A stretch of DNA of 63,680 nt, the filler included, from Globobulimina sp. (Eukaryota), in assembly GCA_003354225.1 (NCBI GenBank). It is 50 parts of 50 records of this genome, joined end to end, with 100 filler letters (N's around TTAATTAATTAA, not from the genome) between each part and the next. Parts side by side here need not be neighbours in the genome. Positions count along the whole stretch, not along the records: positions 54,858 to 56,032 come from PIVH01021668.1; 49 more parts are not named here. One strand, given 5' to 3'. Position 1 is the stretch's first letter. Each line of letters opens with the position of its first letter. Position numbers and translations under genes: made by a program. Of this stretch, positions 6,833 through 57,307 are shown in pieces. The notes under the pieces are model-generated. The model saw nothing but the letters and a program-made list of their open reading frames with translations. It had not been told where the DNA came from and ran no database searches.

Positions 6833-7543
<711 letters not shown>

Positions 7544-7661
7544 AATAATTCTATTATTTATNNNNNNNNNNNNNNNNNNNNNNNNNNNNNNNNNNNNNNN
7601 NNNNNTTAATTAATTAANNNNNNNNNNNNNNNNNNNNNNNNNNNNNNNNNNNNNNNNNNNN

Positions 7662-8716
7662 GCAGTTGTGCTGTTTGCGCTGCTATCTCCATGCAAACGT
7701 GGACCACAACAACATTCACACGTAAACCACCAAAACTCACCACATCCATAAATCATACATACACTCTTTGGATATACCATGCAACATCCATCTCGTTTGT
7801 AGATCCATAATATCAATGCCCCACTTAATATAACAACAAACAATGAATGATCAATACAAATAATCAAACTTTTATCAAATGATAAAGCAAAATAATCCTC
7901 CATTACTTCTAAATAATTGAGAGCTGTTACAATACTGATCAAGCACACAATAATTGCAACACATATTGCTCCTTTCAAGGCTCGTTGCGCCGCCTTAAGG
8001 AAGTACAAGAATTAAATAACGGAATTGGAGATATTCCAGCAAGATATTTCAATATTTAATTCATGCACTACCTTAATTTTTAAATCATTAACATTCACAA
8101 CGATGGTGAATGAATCCAAGATTTTAAGGATTTGTTTGAGTGACGATATGACAGTGGTCGCTTGAATACATATTACCACTGACAGAATAATATAAAATAT
8201 CCCAATCCATTGTATGTTGGTGTAGATGTACTGACATACGTAACAAATAAACATCGTCAGCACAACAAATACCTGCAACAATGCATAAAAGAGTCCAATC
8301 CATTTTGGTCGTTTAGCATTAATTGGTTCGTATAATCTATCAATGACTGATAAATTAAATACGCGAAATATATGATACCCAGTGATGATTACAAATGCTT
8401 CAAACAATGAACACACTGTTTTCAAATCGGCATTCATATATAATATAACATTTGGATACATAAATGATACGTAATCCAATGTATTTAGCGTAATAGACAT
8501 TGTGCAGAAAAATAGAATTAATGTTCCTCTCAGTAATCGTCTTTTATCCTCCATTTTTGTTATACATAACTGTTGAACTGATATTATCCAGAAAACAATT
8601 AATATCAAACTAGATAATTCTAACAATATGTAATGTACTTCTAGCTTTGCATTTGTTGCTGAACTAGAAGCCATGATGCAGCAATATAATAGCAAAAGTT
8701 TTTTCTTACCACCCAT
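7662..8716 (-). CDS. Spliced multi-pass (about 7 TM, GPCR-like) membrane protein, 3' partial
   Basis: About seven hydrophobic helices; in-frame GT-AG intron 7994-8071 joins the two ORFs; Cys-rich tail. Confidence 0.6.
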
Positions 8717-8957
8717 CGATTTAGAAGCGACGTACTGCGAAATGCAAGTAGTTAGATTAAAACCAGCTTAAATGAATGATTTTGTCCTTGACTTGCATTA
8801 AAAGCTCCGACGACAAATAAATAAGGGAAGAAACGTTNNNNNNNNNNNNNNNNNNNNNNNNNNNNNNNNNNNNNNNNNNNNTTAATTAATTAANNNNNNN
8901 NNNNNNNNNNNNNNNNNNNNNNNNNNNNNNNNNNNNNAATTATATAAATAGAAATAA

Positions 8958-9880
8958 ATCCGCGGCTGTTTCGTACAGTGTGTGTTGCAAAAGAGCGCCT
9001 TTAACAAGAATGCCATCTTGGGCGCATTGGAGGATTTGTTGGAGAAAATGGGCAACATTTTGTATAAATTGGTGCCTCGTTTACCGGATAATTCGCCGTA
9101 TGCCAAGGTGGGCATCGATAAGATATGGACCATCGGCTTGGATGTGTCGCAAACAAGGCGGCAAGCCGCCGACTGCCTTGATGGTGTTGCAAACTTTGCC
9201 ATTCTACAGCACGCATCGCGGGATGCGCTGTATTGCGCATTTAAATCGGCAGAGGACGGAAGTGATCCCATTCGCAGCGACGGTGGCGATGACGTACGAA
9301 GCGCTGAAAATGAGTAGTTTGGCAAATTGCAGGATGAGCGGAGCCGGCCGGAGGTGCTTATGGTTTTCGGGATGGAGTGCCGGATAATCAGTTGAAGGAG
9401 GTGTACGGTAAGGAGTTATATTAGTTGGTGTGTTGCGCGGTGTGCGCATGATTTGAAAGGAGTTGATCGAATGGAGCGGGAATAAAATGAAATGGAAGCC
9501 CAAGGTGCAGTTCATTGTGGTGTCCAAAGCGCCCATCGAGAAATTTGGTTTGTGGACCGAGACGGCTATGTAGGACCGTTGGAATTCCCTGCCGTGGTGT
9601 TCCGGGGCATTACGAGCAATAAGTTATGGAATTTTTTTATGTGGAATTATCATCCAAACAAACAGCGCAAGATCCATAATAAAACCTTTGCGTTATGTGG
9701 TGTTGAGGGATGAGATGGAATTGGGAGATACAATAGGGGCGAATGGGCCGATTGGATTGTATGTGTTTAGTATACCCTTCAATATGGGCGGAACCTCGCA
9801 ACCGGGGGCCATTGTGTACGCCAAACATTATGCCGAGACATTGGCGCAAATGATATTGAAGGCTGAGTGCAAGGATATAT
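8958..9880 (+). pseudogene. Frameshifted PIWI/Argonaute-family PIWI domain
   Basis: Ordered motifs across frames: VQCVL, TIGLDVS (9141), PEVLMVF/RDGVPDNQL (9368), KVQFIVVSK, PAVVFRGITS..WNFF, PLRYVVLRDE, PGAIVYAKHYA; at least five frameshifts. Confidence 0.8.
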
Positions 9881-10048
9881 GTGGTATTTTTTGTGAATGT
9901 TTATTTGTTTTTTGTAATATATGTTTTTCTAAGTCATCTTAGTCATTCTTGTGTGTGTGTTGTTAAGATTATGTACTATAAAAAAAATAAAAATACTTAT
10001 CGAACAGATTGCATTTTTGAGAAACGTTTGATAAGTTTTTGAAAAAAT

Positions 10049-10070
10049 CAGTACTTATCGGAAAGCCCTA
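10049..10070 (-). mobile_element. Putative hAT-like transposon/MITE terminus, copy 1
   Basis: CAGTACTTATCGGAAAGCCCTA is identical to 58534-58555; reverse complement starts TAGGG; identity stops at that end. Confidence 0.55.
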
Positions 10071-10213
10071 ATGATTACATGTTGAACATGTTGTGATTTT
10101 TGTTCAACATGTTNNNNNNNNNNNNNNNNNNNNNNNNNNNNNNNNNNNNNNNNNNNNTTAATTAATTAANNNNNNNNNNNNNNNNNNNNNNNNNNNNNNN
10201 NNNNNNNNNNNNN

Positions 10214-11065
10214 CGAATTGCCCAACATCTCACTGAATTTTTCTGGTTGCCAATGGCCAATGGTTCCATTGCCTTCGTTTTTAATCTTTGCTAACTTCAT
10301 ACTTTTATCATGTTCGATATTTTTATGTTGTTTCGCAATATTACCGGTTTCTGGTTTCATGATATTAATCTTGTTAACATATCTATTCATTTTTGATTTC
10401 TTATACCACATAAATGTCGAAACTATGCAAATAAAGGTAAGTATCACAATTATTATAATGCACATTGAAGCATTTGTTGTTGATTGGGCCAATTTAGTCT
10501 GTAAATCCTTATACATTGCACGCGAATCTTCCAAATCTTGTTTGCATTTTGACAAATTAGCAGTTATAATATCTGGCGATCTGTCGAAGTCGAAATCTTG
10601 TTTGCTTTTTGTTAAATTATCCATAGATTTTTGATTTAAGGCACGCGCATCGTTAGTTGATATACGAATTATTTCTTGTATTGTTTGAAAATCAGTATCA
10701 TTTATCTCAATGAATTTAGCCATAAAAGCACCGATAACAATGTGCTTTCTCAACCTTAAGTGCGATGAACTAACACTGCCGAGATATGTTTCAGTGTTTC
10801 CAGAATGTGAAAAGATTGACAAATTGTAAGATGATGCGTGGTGTGCTGTTGTTGAGAATGTGAAATGTAAGCGAAGTGTAGGTCGCACATGTGAGAATAT
10901 GTCATGTATAAACACGTCGTCAGGCATCTTGCTAGGGTAAGATTGTATACATCGATAAAAACCGTTAAAACCTGGAAATTCATCACTATGTATCCAGTAA
11001 TATTCACTTCCATGACAGTAAGAAACCATAAACTCAATTATAAATACAAGCAAGGTTGCAGACAT
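10214..11065 (-). CDS. Hypothetical single-pass type I membrane protein, 3' partial
   Basis: Signal peptide, short coiled coil, TM helix followed by YKKSK. Confidence 0.6.
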
Positions 11066-11489
11066 GATGGCTTTTTTGTGATTTTTGAAAGCGGTTTTTA
11101 CTCAAAGTAAGATTATTGAAAATAATTAACCTGCAAAAGAATTACAATATTTACATTATAAATCAGGAGCATTATCATCAGGCTGTGATATTTGAGTTAC
11201 TTGACTTTGCCCACTATCATTTTTCTCCTCTTGTAAGCCACCATCAATTGTAACAAATGTTTCTTTTGATGGATTAAATGCATCCAAATTAGCATAATCA
11301 ATTTGTGTTTTCAAATGTCTTAAATCCTCTAAATTCTCCAATTTAACCATAATTTTTTCATCTTGTTTATTTTTATGTGCTCCAATCATNNNNNNNNNNN
11401 NNNNNNNNNNNNNNNNNNNNNNNNNNNNNNNNNTTAATTAATTAANNNNNNNNNNNNNNNNNNNNNNNNNNNNNNNNNNNNNNNNNNNN

Positions 11490-12665
11490 GCAGCAGAGAC
11501 AAATGGCGATGCGAAGAGGACAGGTTCCAGGCCAAGGTCGGGGCGGTGGCGCTGGCGGCGGCACTCAGAATCCATACTATCGGCAATGGCAGCAATACTA
11601 CCAACGATTGATGCAAAATCCACAGGGACAGTTACAACAAATGATCATGCAACAACAGGTGTGCACTGCCATGATTCTGTCCCGCTGCCATGATTTTTTA
11701 CTTTGAAAATTGCAAAAACTTTTTCAGTAAAAAATTTGCACACTGGATATTGATATTTTGTTCTGATAAGTTTCCAAAAACATTTTTTTTTGAAACTGAG
11801 CATTTTTTTGTTGTTTTATGTAGCAAATGATAGGTAATTTAAAACGCCAATTGCAAGAACGAGATAAAAATTATCACAAAACTATTCAAACCACGATCAA
11901 TTTTAAAGATATGGAGATCAACGAATTGCGAGGCCAGATTGGCAAATTAGAAGAAGAGAATGAAGAAATTGGCGAGTTGCAAGTGCAGAATTTCCAAATG
12001 AAAAAGGAATTGAATGGATTGCGTGGCGACCACCAAGCCAATGTCTTTGACAATTTATTCGCAAATATGACCTCTTCCTCGGTCAACAAAAGCAAAGTAC
12101 AATGGCCCGGAGGCCAACCACCGCCGCCATCGCCGCCAAATTCTTCCACACTGCCCGCGGGGGCTCATGACCCCAAAGCTGCCATTAACGCCATGTTGAA
12201 AGCAAAATCGTCGCCGTCTGAAATGTTATTGACCAAAACTGTCAAAGAAAAAAAATTAGACACCAAAGACGATGGAAAATATGCGAAATACGCGAAAATG
12301 AAAAAAATTGGTATGTAGCTTAAATTTCCCAACCAATCAAAAAATCAATTTACAACCAATCAAAAAAATAATTTACAACCAATCCAAAAAAATAAAAAAT
12401 GATTTTCTACATTTTCAGTTTGAAACTGCCAACACATATAAATAGGTATGCCAATGGTGAGTATTGTGAATAAAATGCGAATGGACGGCATGTCTGCGCA
12501 GGAAATCGAGGAGTACACAGGCGAGAAAGTGCCGGGTAGCGAGCCAAAGAAAGTAAAGACCAAAGGTCCCGCCGTGAACATCGCAGATACCAAATTTGAT
12601 AAATACCGTCGAATGCAAAAATTGCGAATGCCCATGAAAACCGTCACAAATAAAATGAAGTTAGA
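11490..12665 (+). CDS. Partial spliced coiled-coil/poly-Pro protein with repeated CCDC53-type motif (formin/WASH-related)
   Basis: KYAKMKKIG|MPMVSIVNKMRMDG and KYRRMQKLRMPMKTVTNKMKL; PPPPSPP; introns ~11659-11823 and ~12311-12445. Confidence 0.6.
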
Positions 12666-53582: not shown

Positions 53583-53915
53583 GCTAAAGATTTCAATAAA
53601 CTGATAAAAATATGTGAAGAAAAAAATGTAGCCGTACAGACGATCAAAACGCTTGCCCGTGGACCATTAAATGGAAAAATGAATTCCCACACAACCTGGT
53701 ATGATCCAATAGTGGAAGATGAAGTTATTGATCATTCTGTGTCATGGGTATTGGGAAATGAGAATGTATTCTTAAACACGATTAGTGATATTCATTTATT
53801 AGAGAAGGTGTTAAAAACGGCGGATAACTTTGATAGCCGACCCAGTACGGAAACAATGCTGGAGGATGTAGAAAAATATGGAATTACTCAATTATTTACA
53901 GGTGATGAAATATAA
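53583..53915 (+). CDS. Bacterial aldo/keto reductase, C-terminal part
   Basis: ICEEKNVAVQTIKTLARGP...TWYDPI...SWVLG in frame from the contig edge. Confidence 0.7.
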   Translation, partial: AKDFNKLIKICEEKNVAVQTIKTLARGPLNGKMNSHTTWYDPIVEDEVIDHSVSWVLGNENVFLNTISDIHLLEKVLKTADNFDSRPSTETMLEDVEKYGITQLFTGDEI

Positions 53916-53999
53916 AAAAGCATGATTAAATTTGCTGAGGTCAGGTCTCGGATGTTCAAAATATGAAACAAACAACCAAATTGGAATGATTTTTAAAAT

Positions 54000-54030
54000 T
54001 GAATGCGTTTTTAAACAAGCGCATTCATTT
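54000..54030. terminator. Possible intrinsic terminator between convergent genes
   Basis: TGAATGCGTTT / AAGCGCATTCA 11-bp stem with one G-U pair and 6-nt loop. Confidence 0.45.
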
Positions 54031-54112
54031 GACCGCAATTACACTTAGTGAGCTAAAGAGGGGGCTTGGTAAATTCATTACTATTCAAGTACAGCGACAG
54101 CATATGCGACTG

Positions 54113-54757
54113 TTATCTTAATGTTGCCGATGGAGACATTCCAAAAAAACGTTTATATTCTCGACTAAACTGTGCCGAACTATTGTAGCCTACCATGAAT
54201 CCTGCTTCACTCACGTTTTTCCCTTCCATAATATAGGTTTGAGCTTTATTCAATTTGATGGACTTTGCAAATTGTAATGGAGATAAATGCATTACTTCTT
54301 TAAATTTTTTGTGAAAACCTGAGCTGCTCATGTTAACTAAATCTGCCAAATCATCGATAGACATATTTTTATCAAGATTCTGTTGGAGATATTCGACCGT
54401 CCTTAAAATTTCATGAATTTGCCCGCGTCTTTGAAGATGATAATTTAACATTCCTCCCTGTTCATCTCTTAAAATACGAAAATAGATTTCATCAATAATC
54501 GATTCCCCTAAAATGATCGCTTCATTTGAATCATCCAAGGTTTTTAATAAGCGAATCATTACATCCAGTAAACTCTGCTTGAGAGGGGCAGAAAAAATTC
54601 CAGAAACCTTATTTGCAGTATCCTTAATATTTTTAGGGGCAGCCTGTTCCATTTTTAAAATCATTTGGGAAATTCTGTTACGGTCAAGTTGAATTATTGC
54701 GGCCAATAGTGGTTTTTCAGGACTTGCTTCAGTTAATTCACACTCAAGGGGCATTGG
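54113..54757 (-). CDS. AraC-family transcriptional regulator (YqhC-like), 5' partial
   Basis: LADLVNMSSSGFHKKFK..SPLQF, VGYNSSAQFSREYKRFFG. Confidence 0.93.
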   Translation of the reverse strand, partial: PMPLECELTEASPEKPLLAAIIQLDRNRISQMILKMEQAAPKNIKDTANKVSGIFSAPLKQSLLDVMIRLLKTLDDSNEAIILGESIIDEIYFRILRDEQGGMLNYHLQRRGQIHEILRTVEYLQQNLDKNMSIDDLADLVNMSSSGFHKKFKEVMHLSPLQFAKSIKLNKAQTYIMEGKNVSEAGFMVGYNSSAQFSREYKRFFGMSPSATLR

Positions 54758-54861
54758 NNNNNNNNNNNNNNNNNNNNNNNNNNNNNNNNNNNNNNNNNNN
54801 NTTAATTAATTAANNNNNNNNNNNNNNNNNNNNNNNNNNNNNNNNNNNNNNNNNNNNAACA

Positions 54862-55895
54862 TTACGTTACAAACGAAGTTCCGTCCAGTGGAATCCAACC
54901 AGTCTTATATCCACCCATGTAAGAAATATTGCCATTAGCATATACATCTACCCGCATAGCACCACCGTCTTGATTTTGACAAAATATTCTGCGCAAAGTA
55001 GGCCTCCATCCTTCTGGTAAAGTTGTGATTGTGGTAGCAGTTCCACTCTTTATTAAACCTTTCAAATACACCACATGTCCAATTTTGAATGCTTTTGCTG
55101 CAGCAAATCGTTGGTCATATCGTTGCCAGTTATTTTGTAAAACTAAATCCATTTCTTCCATTTTTGTTTCTTCACTATTTCTCGCTTCCACATCTTGTAA
55201 TCTCTGGGTTAACCGATCAATTTGCTGTTGTTGAGCCAGTAAACATTGTTGTAGCGATAGATTTTCTTTCTTAACATCATTAAATCGCATTGATAACTTA
55301 TCAAAATCCGATACATCTTTTTCCTTCAAAATGAAGCAATAATTAAAAAAAATGTATGGTGGAGCACTAAAATGCAATACAAATAGCAAACAATTCTCCA
55401 TTTGATTATTTTCATTGTTTTTGTTATTCAATTTTGGTTGGAACCCTGTTGGTATATTTATTGCCTCCGGCACCTTCTTGAAAGCTCTCAATTCATCATA
55501 TTTTGCGGTTGCTATGTTTAATACAAAACAATTGTAAAAATATAACGTGTTATGCACGCAACTTACATAAACGAACCTTGTTTAATATTTGGCAATAAAA
55601 ATACTCGAACGTTCTTCATGGTTAATTCATTGGATGTTAGTGTATCAGTTATCATTTTAGCCCCTAATTCTGGCGTTAAACAAGCCATAGTAATTTTTTG
55701 TACTGCATCTTTATCGAAATTCTGTTTAAAAACATTTTTTGTTGTTTGGTTTGTGAGTTTAAGTGTAAATAATTCTGAATTTGAATCATATTCCACAGTA
55801 ACACTGAATTTATCCTCAACCTTCTCAAATTCAATGTTATTAAACGTTTGCCCAAGATTTTGCTCTTTATTTTCTTCCTTAGTATCGTCAGCCAT
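54862..55895 (-). CDS. Complete two-exon 322-aa protein: globular head, coiled coil, phage tail-fibre-like C-terminal domain
   Basis: ATG 55895, GT-AG intron 55512-55576 joins both ORFs in frame; LQNNW...KIGHVVYLKGLIK...LPEGWRP...RVDVYANG...WIPLDGTSF. Confidence 0.75.
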
Positions 55896-56132
55896 GATTA
55901 ACAAACTTAAGAACTCAGAGCTTCAAAAAATGCTCTAAAACATTATTTGGAATATATAGTCAGATATCATTTATGTGCAAGCATAAATCAAGATTATTAT
56001 TCATTTAACATTTGTTTAACATTTGTTTAAAANNNNNNNNNNNNNNNNNNNNNNNNNNNNNNNNNNNNNNNNNNNNTTAATTAATTAANNNNNNNNNNNN
56101 NNNNNNNNNNNNNNNNNNNNNNNNNNNNNNNN

Positions 56133-57307
56133 TGATAAATTATTAACAATTAGTGTAGCTTCACAAAACCAACATGGTTCAGGTCATATAATGAATATGA
56201 TCACAACTGATTGTAACAAATTACAAGATGCAGCGTCAACTGTTAATTGTGTATTTACATTACCGTTTTTTATATTGGCAATATTATATTTCGTATATCA
56301 AGAGCTTCAGTGGAGTTTATTTGCTGGATTAGGATTTGTAATTCTTATATTAATACCTATACAAAGTTTAGTATCTAATTTCTTATTTCATTTTAATTCT
56401 TTTTTTTCAATATATGTTTCTACAATAAAATAGTCAAAGTTTTAATTAACTTTAATCATGCTAGCAAACAATTGGTTAAACTAAGAGATGACAGATTGTC
56501 GATGGTAAATGAAGTATTTGGCGCAATAAGAGCTATAAAAATGTATGCATGGGAGCTACAATATGCAGAGAAAATCAATGGTATTCGTAAAACTGAATTG
56601 CAAATATTACGTAAATACAATATATATGAATCAATGAATAATATTATATTGTTTTCCATACTTATATTAACGAATATAATCCCATTTGGTATTTATGCAT
56701 TTTCTGGTCACACTCTAACACCAAAAAAAGTATTTGTTACCGTGGCGTTTTTAGATCAACTAAAAACGCCATTAATGATACTTCCACTGTTAAGTAAATT
56801 CTATATTTATTTTTCATTATTAAATAATTTTAATAAAAAATACACATATTCATAATACAGATCTATCGTAAACATAATCGATGCATCGATTTCTTTCAAA
56901 AGAATCAGATTATTTCTTAGTTCTCCAAATGTAACACAAGATCAAATTGAATATGTTACAAATGATAAAAATGAAAAGAAACATGCATTGTCTGTTAGAG
57001 AAGCGACATTTTATTGGGATGATGGATTGCAACACACCGCATTAAATGATATTAATTGTGATTTTAAAGTTGGATCATTGACAATGATAATTGGACAAAC
57101 CGGGTCAGGTAAATCTGCATTGATATCTGCTATTATTGGTTGTTTAAATAAGAGTGAAAAACATGGCACTATCAAATATTATGATAATATATTAATCGGT
57201 TATAGTTCACAGGTTGCATGGATCCAAAACGCAACCATTAAAGAAAATATATTATTTGGTAAAGAATATAATGAAATGTTTTATGATACAGTGATCAATG
57301 CGTGTGG
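56133..57307 (+). CDS. ABCC/MRP-family ABC transporter, TMD1-NBD1 fragment, spliced
   Basis: RDDRL..NEVFGAIRAIKMYAWE, ISFKRIRLFL, IIGQTGSGKS, AWIQNATIKENILFG; two short introns. Confidence 0.92.

Follow-up and report, generated by a model that had tools for sequence, protein, structure and literature searches.

Fibre-head domains serve in virus and phage receptor binding, and the heads of the XRCC4 superfamily belong to DNA repair and centriole scaffolds. A gene of the foraminifer Globobulimina sp. encodes what appear to be versions of both in one short protein, which raises the question of what such a molecule does and from where its phage-like end was acquired. The gene lies in a window of 63,680 nucleotides (the whole stretch of DNA that was analysed) made up of about 50 unlinked contigs of approximately 1175 bp, with N/TTAATTAATTAA spacers between them. 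It sits alone, on the minus strand, on one 1175-bp contig (positions 54858–56032), and no relatives of it were found on the other contigs of the window. The reading that we favor, with a probability of roughly 0.6, is that an XRCC4/CCDC61-type head, a coiled coil and a phage-type tip together form a self-associating, trimeric binder of glycan-like ligands that probably resides in the cytosol.

The locus holds a foraminiferal gene that is nuclear and spliced. It is complete (54862..55895), running from an ATG at 55895 to a TAA stop at 54864–54862, and removal of its intron yields a coding sequence of 969 nt, or 322 amino acids, with no internal stops and with homologs of the same length and the same ends. 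Exon 1 (55577..55895, 319 nt, covered by contigs of runs X1, X3, X6 and X7) encodes residues 1–106 and the first base of codon 107, and exon 2 (54865..55511, covered by a contig of X3) encodes residues 107–322, followed by the stop. The 65-nt intron between them (55512..55576) is of the GT..AG type (GTTCGT..ACATAG), lies in phase 1 and has a GC content of 0.28. Exactly this interval is absent from contigs of X3, X6 and X7, public runs that come from three studies; such contigs are transcript-like, come from runs none of which is listed as RNA, and show neither expression level nor strand. In the X3 contig, positions 54858–55511 are fused directly to 55577–55889, and one X1 contig retains the intron. 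The Bolivina homologs from transcriptomes read ...KQ-A-[TS]... over the intron junction, and in P0003, a genomic gene call, the reading continues across an insertion at that position. A 5' leader (55896..55918) lies under another transcript-like contig (X7 record 15, 55642–55918), and in-frame stops are present upstream of the ATG, one of them at a distance of nine codons. Since contigs of X1, X3 and X6 span the junction of coil and tip (55130–55200), this junction is not a chimera. The complete gene with a 65-nt intron that an earlier note on this DNA had described is thus borne out by the gene model and by the exact skipping, and both the splice and the coil/tip junction, for which that note had called for a check, are seen in independent contigs. 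The absence of a signal peptide, also claimed there, agrees with the hydropathy profile, in which no signal peptide or membrane segment was seen (mean Kyte-Doolittle value of -1.51 over the first 30 amino acids, maximum of 1.36 in 19-residue windows). We also weighed the possibility that the hydrophobic stretch MENCLLFVLHF...NYCFIL hides a second intron, and discarded it, because the transcript-derived homologs retain this stretch and it builds the last two strands of the head.

The tip (residues 228–322, 54865..55149, minus strand) adopts, according to an AlphaFold2 model and to homology, an all-β fold of the fibre-head or phage receptor-binding head type, and shares homology with the tips in which tail fibre and minor tail proteins of phages end C-terminally. 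In PHROG it matches the C-termini of five families (5207, 1798, 13022, 3285 and 3639; E-values from 4.5e-7 to 6.5e-5), two of which are annotated as minor tail protein. A tblastn search of 50,697 phage records matched 82, including 57 with at least 80% query coverage, the best match being a Geobacillus phage tail fibre (35.4% identity, E = 1e-7); in all three tail modules that were inspected, the similarity falls at the very C-terminal end of a large tail protein. Similarity to the tips of Geobacillus PK3.6 gp16, Arthrobacter Piccoletto gp21 and Stenotrophomonas CUB19 gp18 covers the whole domain at 30–35% identity, whereas these phage proteins measure 689–1307 amino acids and are encoded in tail modules, unlike the 322-residue foraminiferal protein. 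Eight tip positions are conserved with the phage tips (W8, G31, G36, L44, P45, R49, P50 and G73), and the motifs by which the domain had first been recognized, LQNNW, KIGHVVYLKGLIK, TLPEGWRP, RVDVYANG and WIPLDGTSF, are all present in the sequence.

Structural comparison leads to the same assignment. The model of the window's own tip (pLDDT 95.1) superimposes on gp15 of Listeria phage PSA with a Z-score of 12.9 and an rmsd of 1.6 Å over 91 residues (VIA-align), on the Pa223 tail needle with a Z-score of 11.9 and on lactophage heads with Z-scores of 7.9–8.6; a Z-score of at least 5 was reached by 11 of 48,161 chains, every one of them a viral fibre head. The BFVD database returned 33 matches to the tip at E ≤ 1e-3, with TM-scores of up to 0.90. 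Foldseek, run with the 95-residue tip against the PDB, gave no hit at E ≤ 0.001 (best 1.2e-3), with phage receptor-binding proteins (RBPs) in all of the top rows. Profile searches of PDB sequences found no RBP for the tip, Pfam searches with exon 1, exon 2 and the tip gave hits at noise level only, and PF08931, the lactophage RBP head family, did not match this tip at any E-value up to 10. A link to this family can be drawn transitively, through two relatives: P0015 matches PF08931 with an E-value of 3.6e-18 (65.9 bits), over residues that are also called by the HMM of the foraminiferal tips, and P0052 passes as well, at 29.3 bits against a cutoff of 26.7. The sequence family, the tblastn matches and the structural match of the last 95 residues to PSA gp15 all support the phage tail-fibre C-terminal domain that had been proposed for this protein.

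The closest counterparts among solved structures are the RBP heads of siphophages of Gram-positive bacteria (PSA gp15, TP901-1 ORF49, p2 ORF18, bIL170 and the PF08931 family, Caudo_bapla_RBP), which are likewise β-sandwiches of about 95 residues. As in PSA gp15, the foraminiferal tip is C-terminal behind a helical segment, and the neck and head of gp15 align with the coil and tip of the model of P0002, a Bolivina homolog, over 150 residues with a Z-score of 14.3 and an rmsd of 11.4 Å. The siphophage heads form trimers, a state that for the foraminiferal protein is a prediction. The differences are considerable: the window's tip shares just 13–20% identity with the solved heads, its gene is eukaryotic and spliced, and an XRCC4-type N-terminus takes the place of the stem and shoulder by which the phage proteins dock onto the baseplate. 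The published ligand of PSA gp15 is galactosylated wall teichoic acid, and lactophage RBPs are described as binding a saccharide of the host cell wall.

Outside the foraminiferal family the tip domain occurs mostly as tandem triplets, often together with lectin domains. In the collected set, 112 of the 131 proteins with at least two tip domains contain a number of them that is a multiple of three, arranged in tight triplets. In addition to the tip domains, Tectonin, Ricin-B, ConA-like and VWD domains occur in these proteins; one from Saccharimonadales is surrounded by six pilin-like genes, and the domain is also present in Symbiodinium natans (P0050). The triplet proteins (P0062, P0084, P0137, P0157 and the Symbiodinium protein among them), which include multi-lectin, pilus-associated and giant repeat proteins from bacteria and protists, belong to the same domain family and imply a three-fold unit, and because each chain carries three copies, a coiled coil is unnecessary. 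They differ from the foraminiferal protein in that many bear signal peptides or pilin motifs along with their lectin partners, and in that they lie mostly across a strongly supported split in the tree of tips.

That tree bears directly on the origin of the domain. In a maximum-likelihood analysis of 113 tips, which covered single-domain matches of the family-profile search down to rank 150, the foraminiferal tips, 23 in number, are united in a single clade (SH-aLRT 99), and this clade and all nine phage tips fall on the same side of a split with a support of 99; the sister grouping of foraminiferal and phage tips has an SH-aLRT of 82%. We therefore favor a phage origin of the tip, which the tree resolves weakly. 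The suggestion of the earlier note that the domain is phage-derived holds insofar as the foraminiferal tips are on the phage side of the well-supported split, and is weakened by the modest sister support and by the presence of the domain in pilus-associated and lectin-type proteins of bacteria. Most likely the tip, and possibly the helical neck along with it, was gained a single time by an ancestor of these foraminifera, from a phage, a prophage or a bacterium, and diversified afterwards. Alternatively, the tip could have come from a cellular bacterium, for example as part of a pilus-associated or lectin-type adhesin, or could be an old eukaryotic domain, which would leave the architecture of the protein unchanged. 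Individual triplet domains score 60–80 bits against the foraminiferal tip HMM, compared with 31–58 bits for the phage tips, and this difference, along with the limited sister support, keeps a bacterial donor in consideration. The occurrence of the domain in Symbiodinium natans, in the Saccharimonadales pilin cluster and in Tectonin/Ricin lectin proteins points the same way, as does a scan of viral contigs with a single tip, in which none of 98 pattern matches was confirmed by tblastn. Against this source, the Symbiodinium and lectin-type triplets are separated by the 99-supported split from the foraminiferal tips, which join those of phages, and it is in phages (PSA gp15) that one C-terminal copy follows a helical neck, the non-phage proteins that were encountered having triplets. 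On balance we regard a bacterial or old eukaryotic source as rather unlikely and retain the phage as the preferred donor.

The N-terminal part of the protein (approximately residues 1–169, 55327..55895, minus strand, split by the intron) is predicted to have the XRCC4-superfamily fold, in the version found in CCDC61. It was modelled on P0002 (pLDDT 89.3) rather than on the window's own protein; P0002 is 50% and 55% identical to the products of the two exons and can be aligned with them along the whole head. The model consists of four strands, a helix-turn-helix, a fifth strand, an extra helix with a loop, and a hairpin, CLLFVLHF...NYCF. Its best structural match is the CCDC61 head, with a Z-score of 14.6 and an rmsd of 2.4 Å over 115 of 118 residues, followed by SAS-6 (10–12), XRCC4 (9–10.3) and PAXX and XLF (both about 8), so that the impression of a head reminiscent of SAS-6 and XRCC4, formed from the sequence, is substantiated at the level of the fold. 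Foldseek, run with the head, gave an E-value of 1.2e-5, and an Atlas search, the hits of which we treat as leads, placed a viral cluster at the top (0.90) and a SAS-6_N/CCDC61_N cluster at 0.84. Like the known members of the superfamily, the P0002 head contains a helix-turn-helix between strands 4 and 5 and is directly followed by a coiled coil. It further contains a helix (residues 107–118) and a low-confidence loop (120–149) between the strands formed by residues 99–104 and 150–159, and Ochi et al. (2020) describe such an insertion between strands 5 and 6, an extra helix with an unstructured loop, as a feature unique to CCDC61. No sequence similarity accompanies this resemblance: none of 27 family members matches SAS-6_N, XRCC4 or related Pfam families at E ≤ 10, for which reason the kinship to the superfamily is one of fold alone, and a search of PDB sequences with the family profile returned coiled-coil noise (E ≥ 0.1). 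The protein also differs from CCDC61 in having a short coil and in ending in a compact, folded β domain, where CCDC61 has a low-complexity C-terminus.

Head and tip are connected by a coiled coil with an unbroken heptad register (approximately residues 170–227, 55150..55326, minus strand), which corresponds to a helix spanning residues 178–230 in the P0002 model; Pfam and PDB sequence searches with it gave coiled-coil noise only. When three copies of coil and tip were submitted to ESMFold2, the complex scored 0.85, compared with 0.02 for the best of three controls, the runs agreed on at least 92% of contacts, partner pLDDT was at least 87, and contacts spaced by heptads were present in all three chains. 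In calibration, 21 of 30 proteins solved as pairs of one chain attained this mark, and none of 23 solved as single chains; for eukaryotic proteins the figures were 17 of 29, but only one of the seven with no older solved relative, and none of 30 single chains; the calibration was on two copies and the model on three, and alignment was not used. Three copies of coil and tip are the sole multimer that was modelled, and the score may in part reflect memory of solved phage RBP trimers. The solved relatives of the tip are homotrimers, and the neck of PSA gp15 is a triple helix. Taken with the tandem triplets found elsewhere and with the build of PSA gp15, from which a trimer of coil and tip can be inferred, the model makes it fairly probable that three chains are held together, by a coil of three strands and by a tip that is itself a trimer. 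In this respect the predicted stalk departs from the XRCC4 superfamily, whose characterised members are dimeric and all have two-stranded stalks; head-to-head contacts in this superfamily assemble filaments or rings. There is accordingly a clash between a head of a type known with two-stranded stalks only and a tip, a C1q-bearing paralog and a model that point to a trimer, and how a head of the dimer type fits with a tip of the trimer type is a concrete structural question.

Trimeric coiled coils that present β-sandwich recognition domains are familiar from the MATH domains of TRAF proteins and from the heads of C1q and collectins. The foraminiferal protein shares with them the succession of an oligomerising N-terminus, a coiled coil and a β-sandwich recognition head, which is an analogy of layout only; no homology of the tip to either MATH or C1q was found, and C1q and the collectins are secreted, whereas the foraminiferal protein has no signal peptide. 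The window's protein has no match to C1q (PF00386) in the Pfam search, and yet one of its paralogs, P0069 from Bolivina, bears a true C1q domain behind the family head and coil (PF00386, E = 6.3e-10, above the cutoff). Two further paralogs, P0048 and P0121, share the head and coil and end differently again; the C-terminal domain of P0048 looks SPRY-like by eye, yet Pfam gave nothing for it at E-values up to 1. These exchanges suggest a modular family, in which a single kind of stalk bears a choice of recognition heads. The head was present in 25 of 159 collected proteins, so that the foraminiferal paralog family comprises at least 25 sequences, and paralogs occur in number in the transcriptomes of two genera. 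Six close homologs were retrieved (E-values from 7e-82 to 8e-49), the closest with a name being from Globobulimina turgida (76% identity) and the other named ones being Bolivina argentea transcriptome proteins; Rhizaria, the group in which paralogs were to be sought according to the earlier note, is therefore where the named homologs are found. The profile of the family collected 8654 proteins at E ≤ 1e-3 from 1.84 billion, and a word-based search with the P0002 head collected three; with homologs of this kind, the gene is no product of chance.

What would such a molecule bind? The predicted function is taken from that of the relatives. The architecture, a parallel coil of about 55 residues between a CCDC61/VFL3-like head and a 95-residue β-sandwich tip, would allow the head to self-associate or to dock the molecule onto a cellular scaffold, and the molecule would then be a multivalent tether or sensor, cytosolic or facing the phagosome, for bacteria that are prey, endobionts or invaders, much like the cytosolic sensor of bacterial surfaces that the earlier note had suggested as a possibility. 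By analogy with the characterised fibre heads, the trimeric tip may bind a glycan-like ligand of repeating structure, for which a polymer of the bacterial cell wall is the most plausible candidate, a proposal that we advance tentatively and at somewhat less than even odds. An association with glycans is indicated by the lectin domains of the triplet relatives and by the pilin-like genes around the Saccharimonadales relative. The absence of a signal peptide would place extracellular bacteria out of reach, unless the protein is released or its targets are phagosomal or cytosolic bacteria. A broader extrapolation, which we offer as speculative and quite improbable, would have Foraminifera possess intracellular, self-assembling recognition scaffolds, in which the heads form polymers or attach to the cytoskeleton, and three-stranded stalks present phage-type, C1q or other tips; the cell would thereby have an autonomous means to catch, sort or police bacteria, whether prey, endobionts or invaders.

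The protein could instead be a divergent cytoskeletal or basal-body scaffold of the CCDC61/VFL3 type, with the tip serving as an oligomerising module for protein-protein contacts, one whose partner would be foraminiferal (tubulin, fibres or an organic matrix, for instance) and which has no role in recognising bacteria or glycans. The head is nearest to CCDC61 and shares its unique insertion, a signal peptide is absent, and the C-terminal domain is swapped among paralogs as it might be in a family of cargo adaptors. CCDC61 itself, as reported, builds filaments and binds microtubules via its coil and C-terminal region, and Ochi et al. report certain basic residues as required for this binding. 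Yet the foraminiferal coil is short, at about 55 residues, no sequence similarity to CCDC61 was found, and the cellular relatives of the tip accompany lectin domains or pilins; all of the characterised relatives of the tip are adhesins for surface saccharides or virion receptor-binding heads. We consider a scaffold of this kind unlikely, and prefer the trimeric binder of glycan-like ligands.

It is highly improbable that the gene is that of a foraminiferal virus or an endogenous viral element with a virion fibre that binds the host cell as its product. The fold is also used by adenoviruses, reoviruses, Marseilleviridae and virophages, a coil followed by a head is the usual layout of fibres, and with this gene alone on its contig the genomic neighborhood is invisible here; against this stand a spliceosomal intron, the position of which is shared by the genomic homolog and which is removed in the transcript-like contigs, the many paralogs across the transcriptomes of two genera, an N-terminus that is a eukaryotic XRCC4/CCDC61-type head rather than a capsid anchor, and the failure of the viral-contig scan to yield a confirmed relative. 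A chimeric contig or a misread bacterial or phage fragment, which could be imagined in a highly fragmented assembly that includes bacterial contigs (the adjoining one encodes an AraC regulator) and on a contig that ends only 4 nt past the stop codon, can be dismissed, given that the full spliced coding sequence was recovered in a 2041-nt contig of another study, pieces of it are found in eight runs from four studies, full-length homologs share both ends and every junction is bridged by independent contigs.

XRCC4-type heads and fibre-head domains are each known already; what appears to be new is their presence in one protein. The combination of such a head with a coil and a phage-type tip appears to be undescribed: full-text literature searches aimed at the family and the domain found no paper on it, and the background literature on Zamilon and noumeavirus proteins, CCDC61 and PSA gp15 contains no description of it either. 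Foraminifera rank as major bacterivores and also harbor endobionts. Were the tip still to bind polymers of the bacterial surface, the protein would be a clear case of the reuse of a phage or bacterial adhesin by a protist, and an entry point to how foraminifera recognise bacteria. Should the recognition scaffolds considered above exist, they would represent the domestication of a phage adhesin by a eukaryote together with the first member of the XRCC4 superfamily on a trimeric stalk. Separately, the single-chain triplet form of the domain, with its lectins, pilins and giant repeats, appears to constitute an uncurated domain family, its match to Pfam being weak.

The minus-strand gene at 54862..55895 of the window is best described as belonging to a foraminiferal family of cytosolic proteins in which a CCDC61-like head and a coiled coil carry a phage-type receptor-binding head at the C-terminal tip. 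The observation of the gene itself is confirmed. Its first exon opens with an ATG at 55895, nine codons downstream of an in-frame stop, and extends to 55577; a 65-nt GT..AG intron (55576-55512, phase 1, 28% GC) follows, and the second exon starts at 55511 and leads to a TAA stop (54864-54862) just 4 nt short of the contig end. The spliced coding sequence of 969 nt encodes 322 amino acids with no internal stop. Eight public sequencing runs from four studies contain this stretch wholly or partly, and the contigs of four of them (X1, X3, X6 and X7) were aligned to it. The X1 contig keeps the intron and is continuous over 55126-55652 with zero differences, and 55512-55576 is precisely absent from the contigs of X3, X6 and X7, runs of three different studies that carry no stated RNA type (RNA is a guess for X6 and X7); the complete intron-containing gene proposed in the earlier note is thus borne out. 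The 2041-nt X3 contig holds the entire spliced coding sequence with 11 letters different. The spliced junction also matches transcriptome proteins of Bolivina argentea, which have ...KQ-A-T/S... at this point, and the homolog P0003, a genomic gene call, has an insertion read through at the position of the intron. The suspicion that coil and tip were joined as a chimera is settled by the contigs of X1, X3 and X6, all of which bridge the junction. A second intron, in the stretch MENCLLFVLHF...NYCFIL, was ruled out because transcript-derived homologs keep this hydrophobic stretch and because two of the head's core strands are built from it. The X3 contig (record 5) reaches about 1050 nt beyond the 3' end of the gene's contig (54858), as a long 3' UTR or further sequence.

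Every motif that the earlier note had quoted as characteristic of siphovirus tail fibers is present in the protein, and the assignment of the tip (residues 228-322) to this class of domains holds at the levels of both sequence and structure. A Pfam search with the tip gave no match. Among the PHROGs, several families match it at their C-terminal ends, with E 4.5e-7 to 6.5e-5, and two of these are annotated as minor tail protein. A tblastn search of 50,697 phage genomes returned 82 records; in 57 of them the match spans no less than 80% of the domain, and the top record is from Geobacillus phage PK3.6, where the protein is labeled "putative tail fiber protein" (35.4% identity, E 1e-7). In all three phages inspected, the match falls at the very C-terminus of a tail protein of 689-1307 amino acids encoded in the tail module. 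The AlphaFold2 model of the protein's own tip is all-beta (pLDDT 95.1, pTM 0.86); compared with 48,161 PDB representatives, it reaches Z>=5 with just 11 chains, every one a viral fiber head. These are led by gp15 of Listeria phage PSA (Z 12.9, rmsd 1.6 Å over 91 residues), which has the same head fold yet only 20% identity, followed by the tail needle of Pseudomonas phage Pa223 (Z 11.9), the heads of lactococcal phages bIL170, TP901-1 and p2 (Z 7.9-8.6), Zamilon Zav_19 (Z 7.3), and adenovirus and reovirus heads (Z 5-6). Foldseek places the same phage receptor-binding proteins on top in the PDB (best E 1.2e-3) and yields 33 matches at E<=1e-3 among predicted viral structures (TM up to 0.90), mostly minor tail, receptor-binding and tailspike proteins. 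At the sequence level, the tie to the lactophage receptor-binding head family PF08931 is transitive only, via the tip relative P0015, which matches it with E 3.6e-18 over residues also called by the foraminiferal tip HMM.

Since the intron splits the head of the Globobulimina protein, its fold was taken from the Bolivina homolog P0002 (50% identity in exon 1 and 55% in exon 2), modeled with a 27-sequence family alignment. In the model (pLDDT 89.3), a helix-turn-helix separates the first four strands from the fifth, after which come an extra helix, a loop of low confidence and a hairpin of two strands, then a 53-residue helix and the tip. In VIA-align, the human CCDC61 head ranks first (Z 14.6, rmsd 2.4 Å, 115 of 118 residues), ahead of SAS-6 from five species (Z 10-12), XRCC4 (9-10.3), PAXX (8.1-8.6) and XLF (8.1), and Foldseek is concordant (CCDC61, E 1.2e-5), which upholds on this model the SAS-6/XRCC4 resemblance suggested earlier. 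The extra helix and unstructured loop between strands 5 and 6, which the sections consulted of Ochi et al. 2020 describe as unique to CCDC61, are shared by the P0002 head model. SAS-6_N, XRCC4 or similar Pfam families are matched by none of the 27 family members, and PDB profile searches gave coiled-coil noise alone; the predicted kinship with the CCDC61/XRCC4 superfamily is one of fold, without sequence support. As leads only, an Atlas search based on language-model features of P0002 residues 1-180 put nearest an all-viral cluster of 131-aa proteins (score 0.90) and gave a SAS-6_N/CCDC61_N cluster 0.84.

A word-based search with exon 2 recovered six homologs (E 7e-82 to 8e-49), some of them from Globobulimina turgida (76% identity) or Bolivina argentea. 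When 1.84 billion representatives were searched exhaustively with a profile, 8654 proteins passed E<=1e-3, of which 1764 passed E<=1e-10 and 208 passed E<=1e-30. Among the matches listed, the head is present in 25 of the 159 collected proteins, 20 with one tip and five with another C-terminus behind head and coil. In P0069 of B. argentea, the C-terminus is a true C1q domain (PF00386, E 6.3e-10), and P0048, also of B. argentea, and P0121 retain the CCDC61-like head and coil with other C-terminal domains, for which a Pfam search gave zero matches. The head and coil thus appear to be a stalk that serves as a platform for varied C-terminal heads. No family member has a signal peptide, in keeping with the earlier claim for this protein, whose first 30 residues are strongly hydrophilic (maximum 19-residue Kyte-Doolittle window 1.36).

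The relatives of the tip with solved structures form homotrimers, and in PSA gp15 a triple-helix neck precedes the head, according to the literature consulted, which here and for CCDC61 comprises PMC7267773, PMC7301860, PMC7291167 and bioRxiv 10.1101/2023.01.23.525297. Outside the foraminiferal family, the domain occurs, among the matches listed, overwhelmingly in tight tandem triplets: the copy number is a multiple of three in 112 of 131 multi-copy proteins (three in 76, six in 25, nine in four, twelve in three, and 15, 18 or 21 in one or two each) and rises to about 23 in proteins of 3000-6500 amino acids, and single copies are confined to the foraminiferal family (23 proteins). The list is ranked by total score and therefore favors multi-copy proteins, a bias that cannot account for the predominance of threes. 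ESMFold2, with a mark calibrated on two copies and the alignment unused, gave three copies of this protein's own coil plus tip scores of 0.85, 0.84 and 0.85, where the best of three controls reached 0.02, with at least 92% of contacts in common between runs and partner pLDDT of at least 87. Of proteins solved as same-chain pairs, 21 of 30 reach the mark, compared with 0 of 23 single chains; among eukaryotic proteins, the counts are 17 of 29, but only one of the seven for which no older relative had been solved, and 0 of 30 for single chains. The high score may reflect solved trimers of receptor-binding proteins that the model has memorized. The modeled contacts follow an unbroken heptad pattern, with a family-invariant asparagine ("EN" of KKENLSL) at a core position. 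A core asparagine is more typical of three-stranded coils. Against a trimer counts the XRCC4 superfamily, whose characterized members all have two-stranded stalks in the part consulted of Ochi et al. 2020, whereas the stalk of the coil-plus-tip model is three-stranded. On balance, a trimer at the tip is probable. Gp101 of Microbacterium phage A3Wally (486 aa), encoded directly after a minor tail protein, seems to contain three tip-like domains in tandem, at 40.3, 10.8 and 4.2 bits; phages may therefore have single-chain triplets as well.

To approach the origin of the tip, 113 tip domains were placed in a quick maximum-likelihood tree built on 99 columns: 23 are foraminiferal, nine are from phages and the remainder come from 28 triplet-type proteins (26 with three or two copies, plus P0050 and P0016) hand-picked, with others left out, from the best 150 of the 8654 profile matches, lower-ranked single-domain matches being outside the sample. 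The foraminiferal tips form a single clade (SH-aLRT 99), and a split with support 99 groups them with all nine phage tips and seven triplet proteins, opposite the Tectonin/Ricin-type, Symbiodinium and other triplets; closest to the clade are five phage tips and one triplet protein (82%). We read this as a single acquisition from the phage/prophage side, in which neck and head perhaps came together; some PHROG and profile matches reach into the coil. The donor may instead have been a bacterium, as the per-domain scores of the foraminiferal tip HMM, at 60-80 bits for triplets and 31-58 bits for phage tips, point in the opposite direction to the tree; the support-99 split, however, sets the foraminiferal tips with the phage tips and away from the Tectonin/Ricin-type triplets. 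The phage derivation put forward in the earlier note is accordingly favored as to side, and qualified by the nearest-neighbor support of just 82% and by the HMM scores.

Triplet proteins also bear Tectonin, Ricin-B, ConA-like (Laminin_G_3), VWD and beta/gamma-crystallin domains, and in P0119 a pilin-type N-terminal methylation motif is fused to the tip domains; one triplet protein belongs to Symbiodinium natans, and Pfam covers this type of tip with weak PF08931 matches only. P0157, from a metagenome-assembled Candidatus Saccharimonadales genome (locus L011, 8001-9797), lies inside a run (7080-12283) of six genes that share the prokaryotic N-terminal methylation (pilin) motif, and it could be an adhesin associated with the pili of an epibiotic bacterium. 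In the literature consulted, the ligand of PSA gp15 is galactosylated wall teichoic acid, and lactophage heads bind cell-wall saccharides. Given these lectin and pilin partners and saccharide-binding phage heads, binding to a surface glycopolymer would be, through guilt by association, the best-supported guess for the foraminiferal tip. By analogy, the protein may bind a glycan-like ligand, and the proposed role as sensor or tether for bacteria is plausible. The structural and evolutionary reading first offered is, overall, supported. A full-text literature search, judged mostly from titles and the beginnings of abstracts, found no paper on such a protein, and the combination of CCDC61-like head, coil and phage-type tip is without match in the literature searched.

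The window, 63,680 bases in all, consists of about 50 separate contigs of 1174-1177 bp joined by runs of N around TTAATTAATTAA, and adjacent stretches are therefore unlinked; the gene occupies a single contig (54858-56032, 32% GC). Contig GC ranges from 26% to 43%, which suggests a mixture of eukaryotic and bacterial DNA in the assembly. The contig preceding that of the gene (53583-54757) encodes on the minus strand a bacterial AraC-family regulator (ORF 54116-54757; AraC_N E 2e-22, HTH_18 E 4.6e-19), bacterial DNA within the same assembly as the spliced gene. The contig that follows (56133-57307) encodes the nucleotide-binding domain of an ABC-transporter ATPase (ABC_tran E 2.1e-7) in two open frames, between which lies a probable AT-rich GT..AG intron of 63 nt (about 56371-56433), close in size to the 65-nt intron described here.
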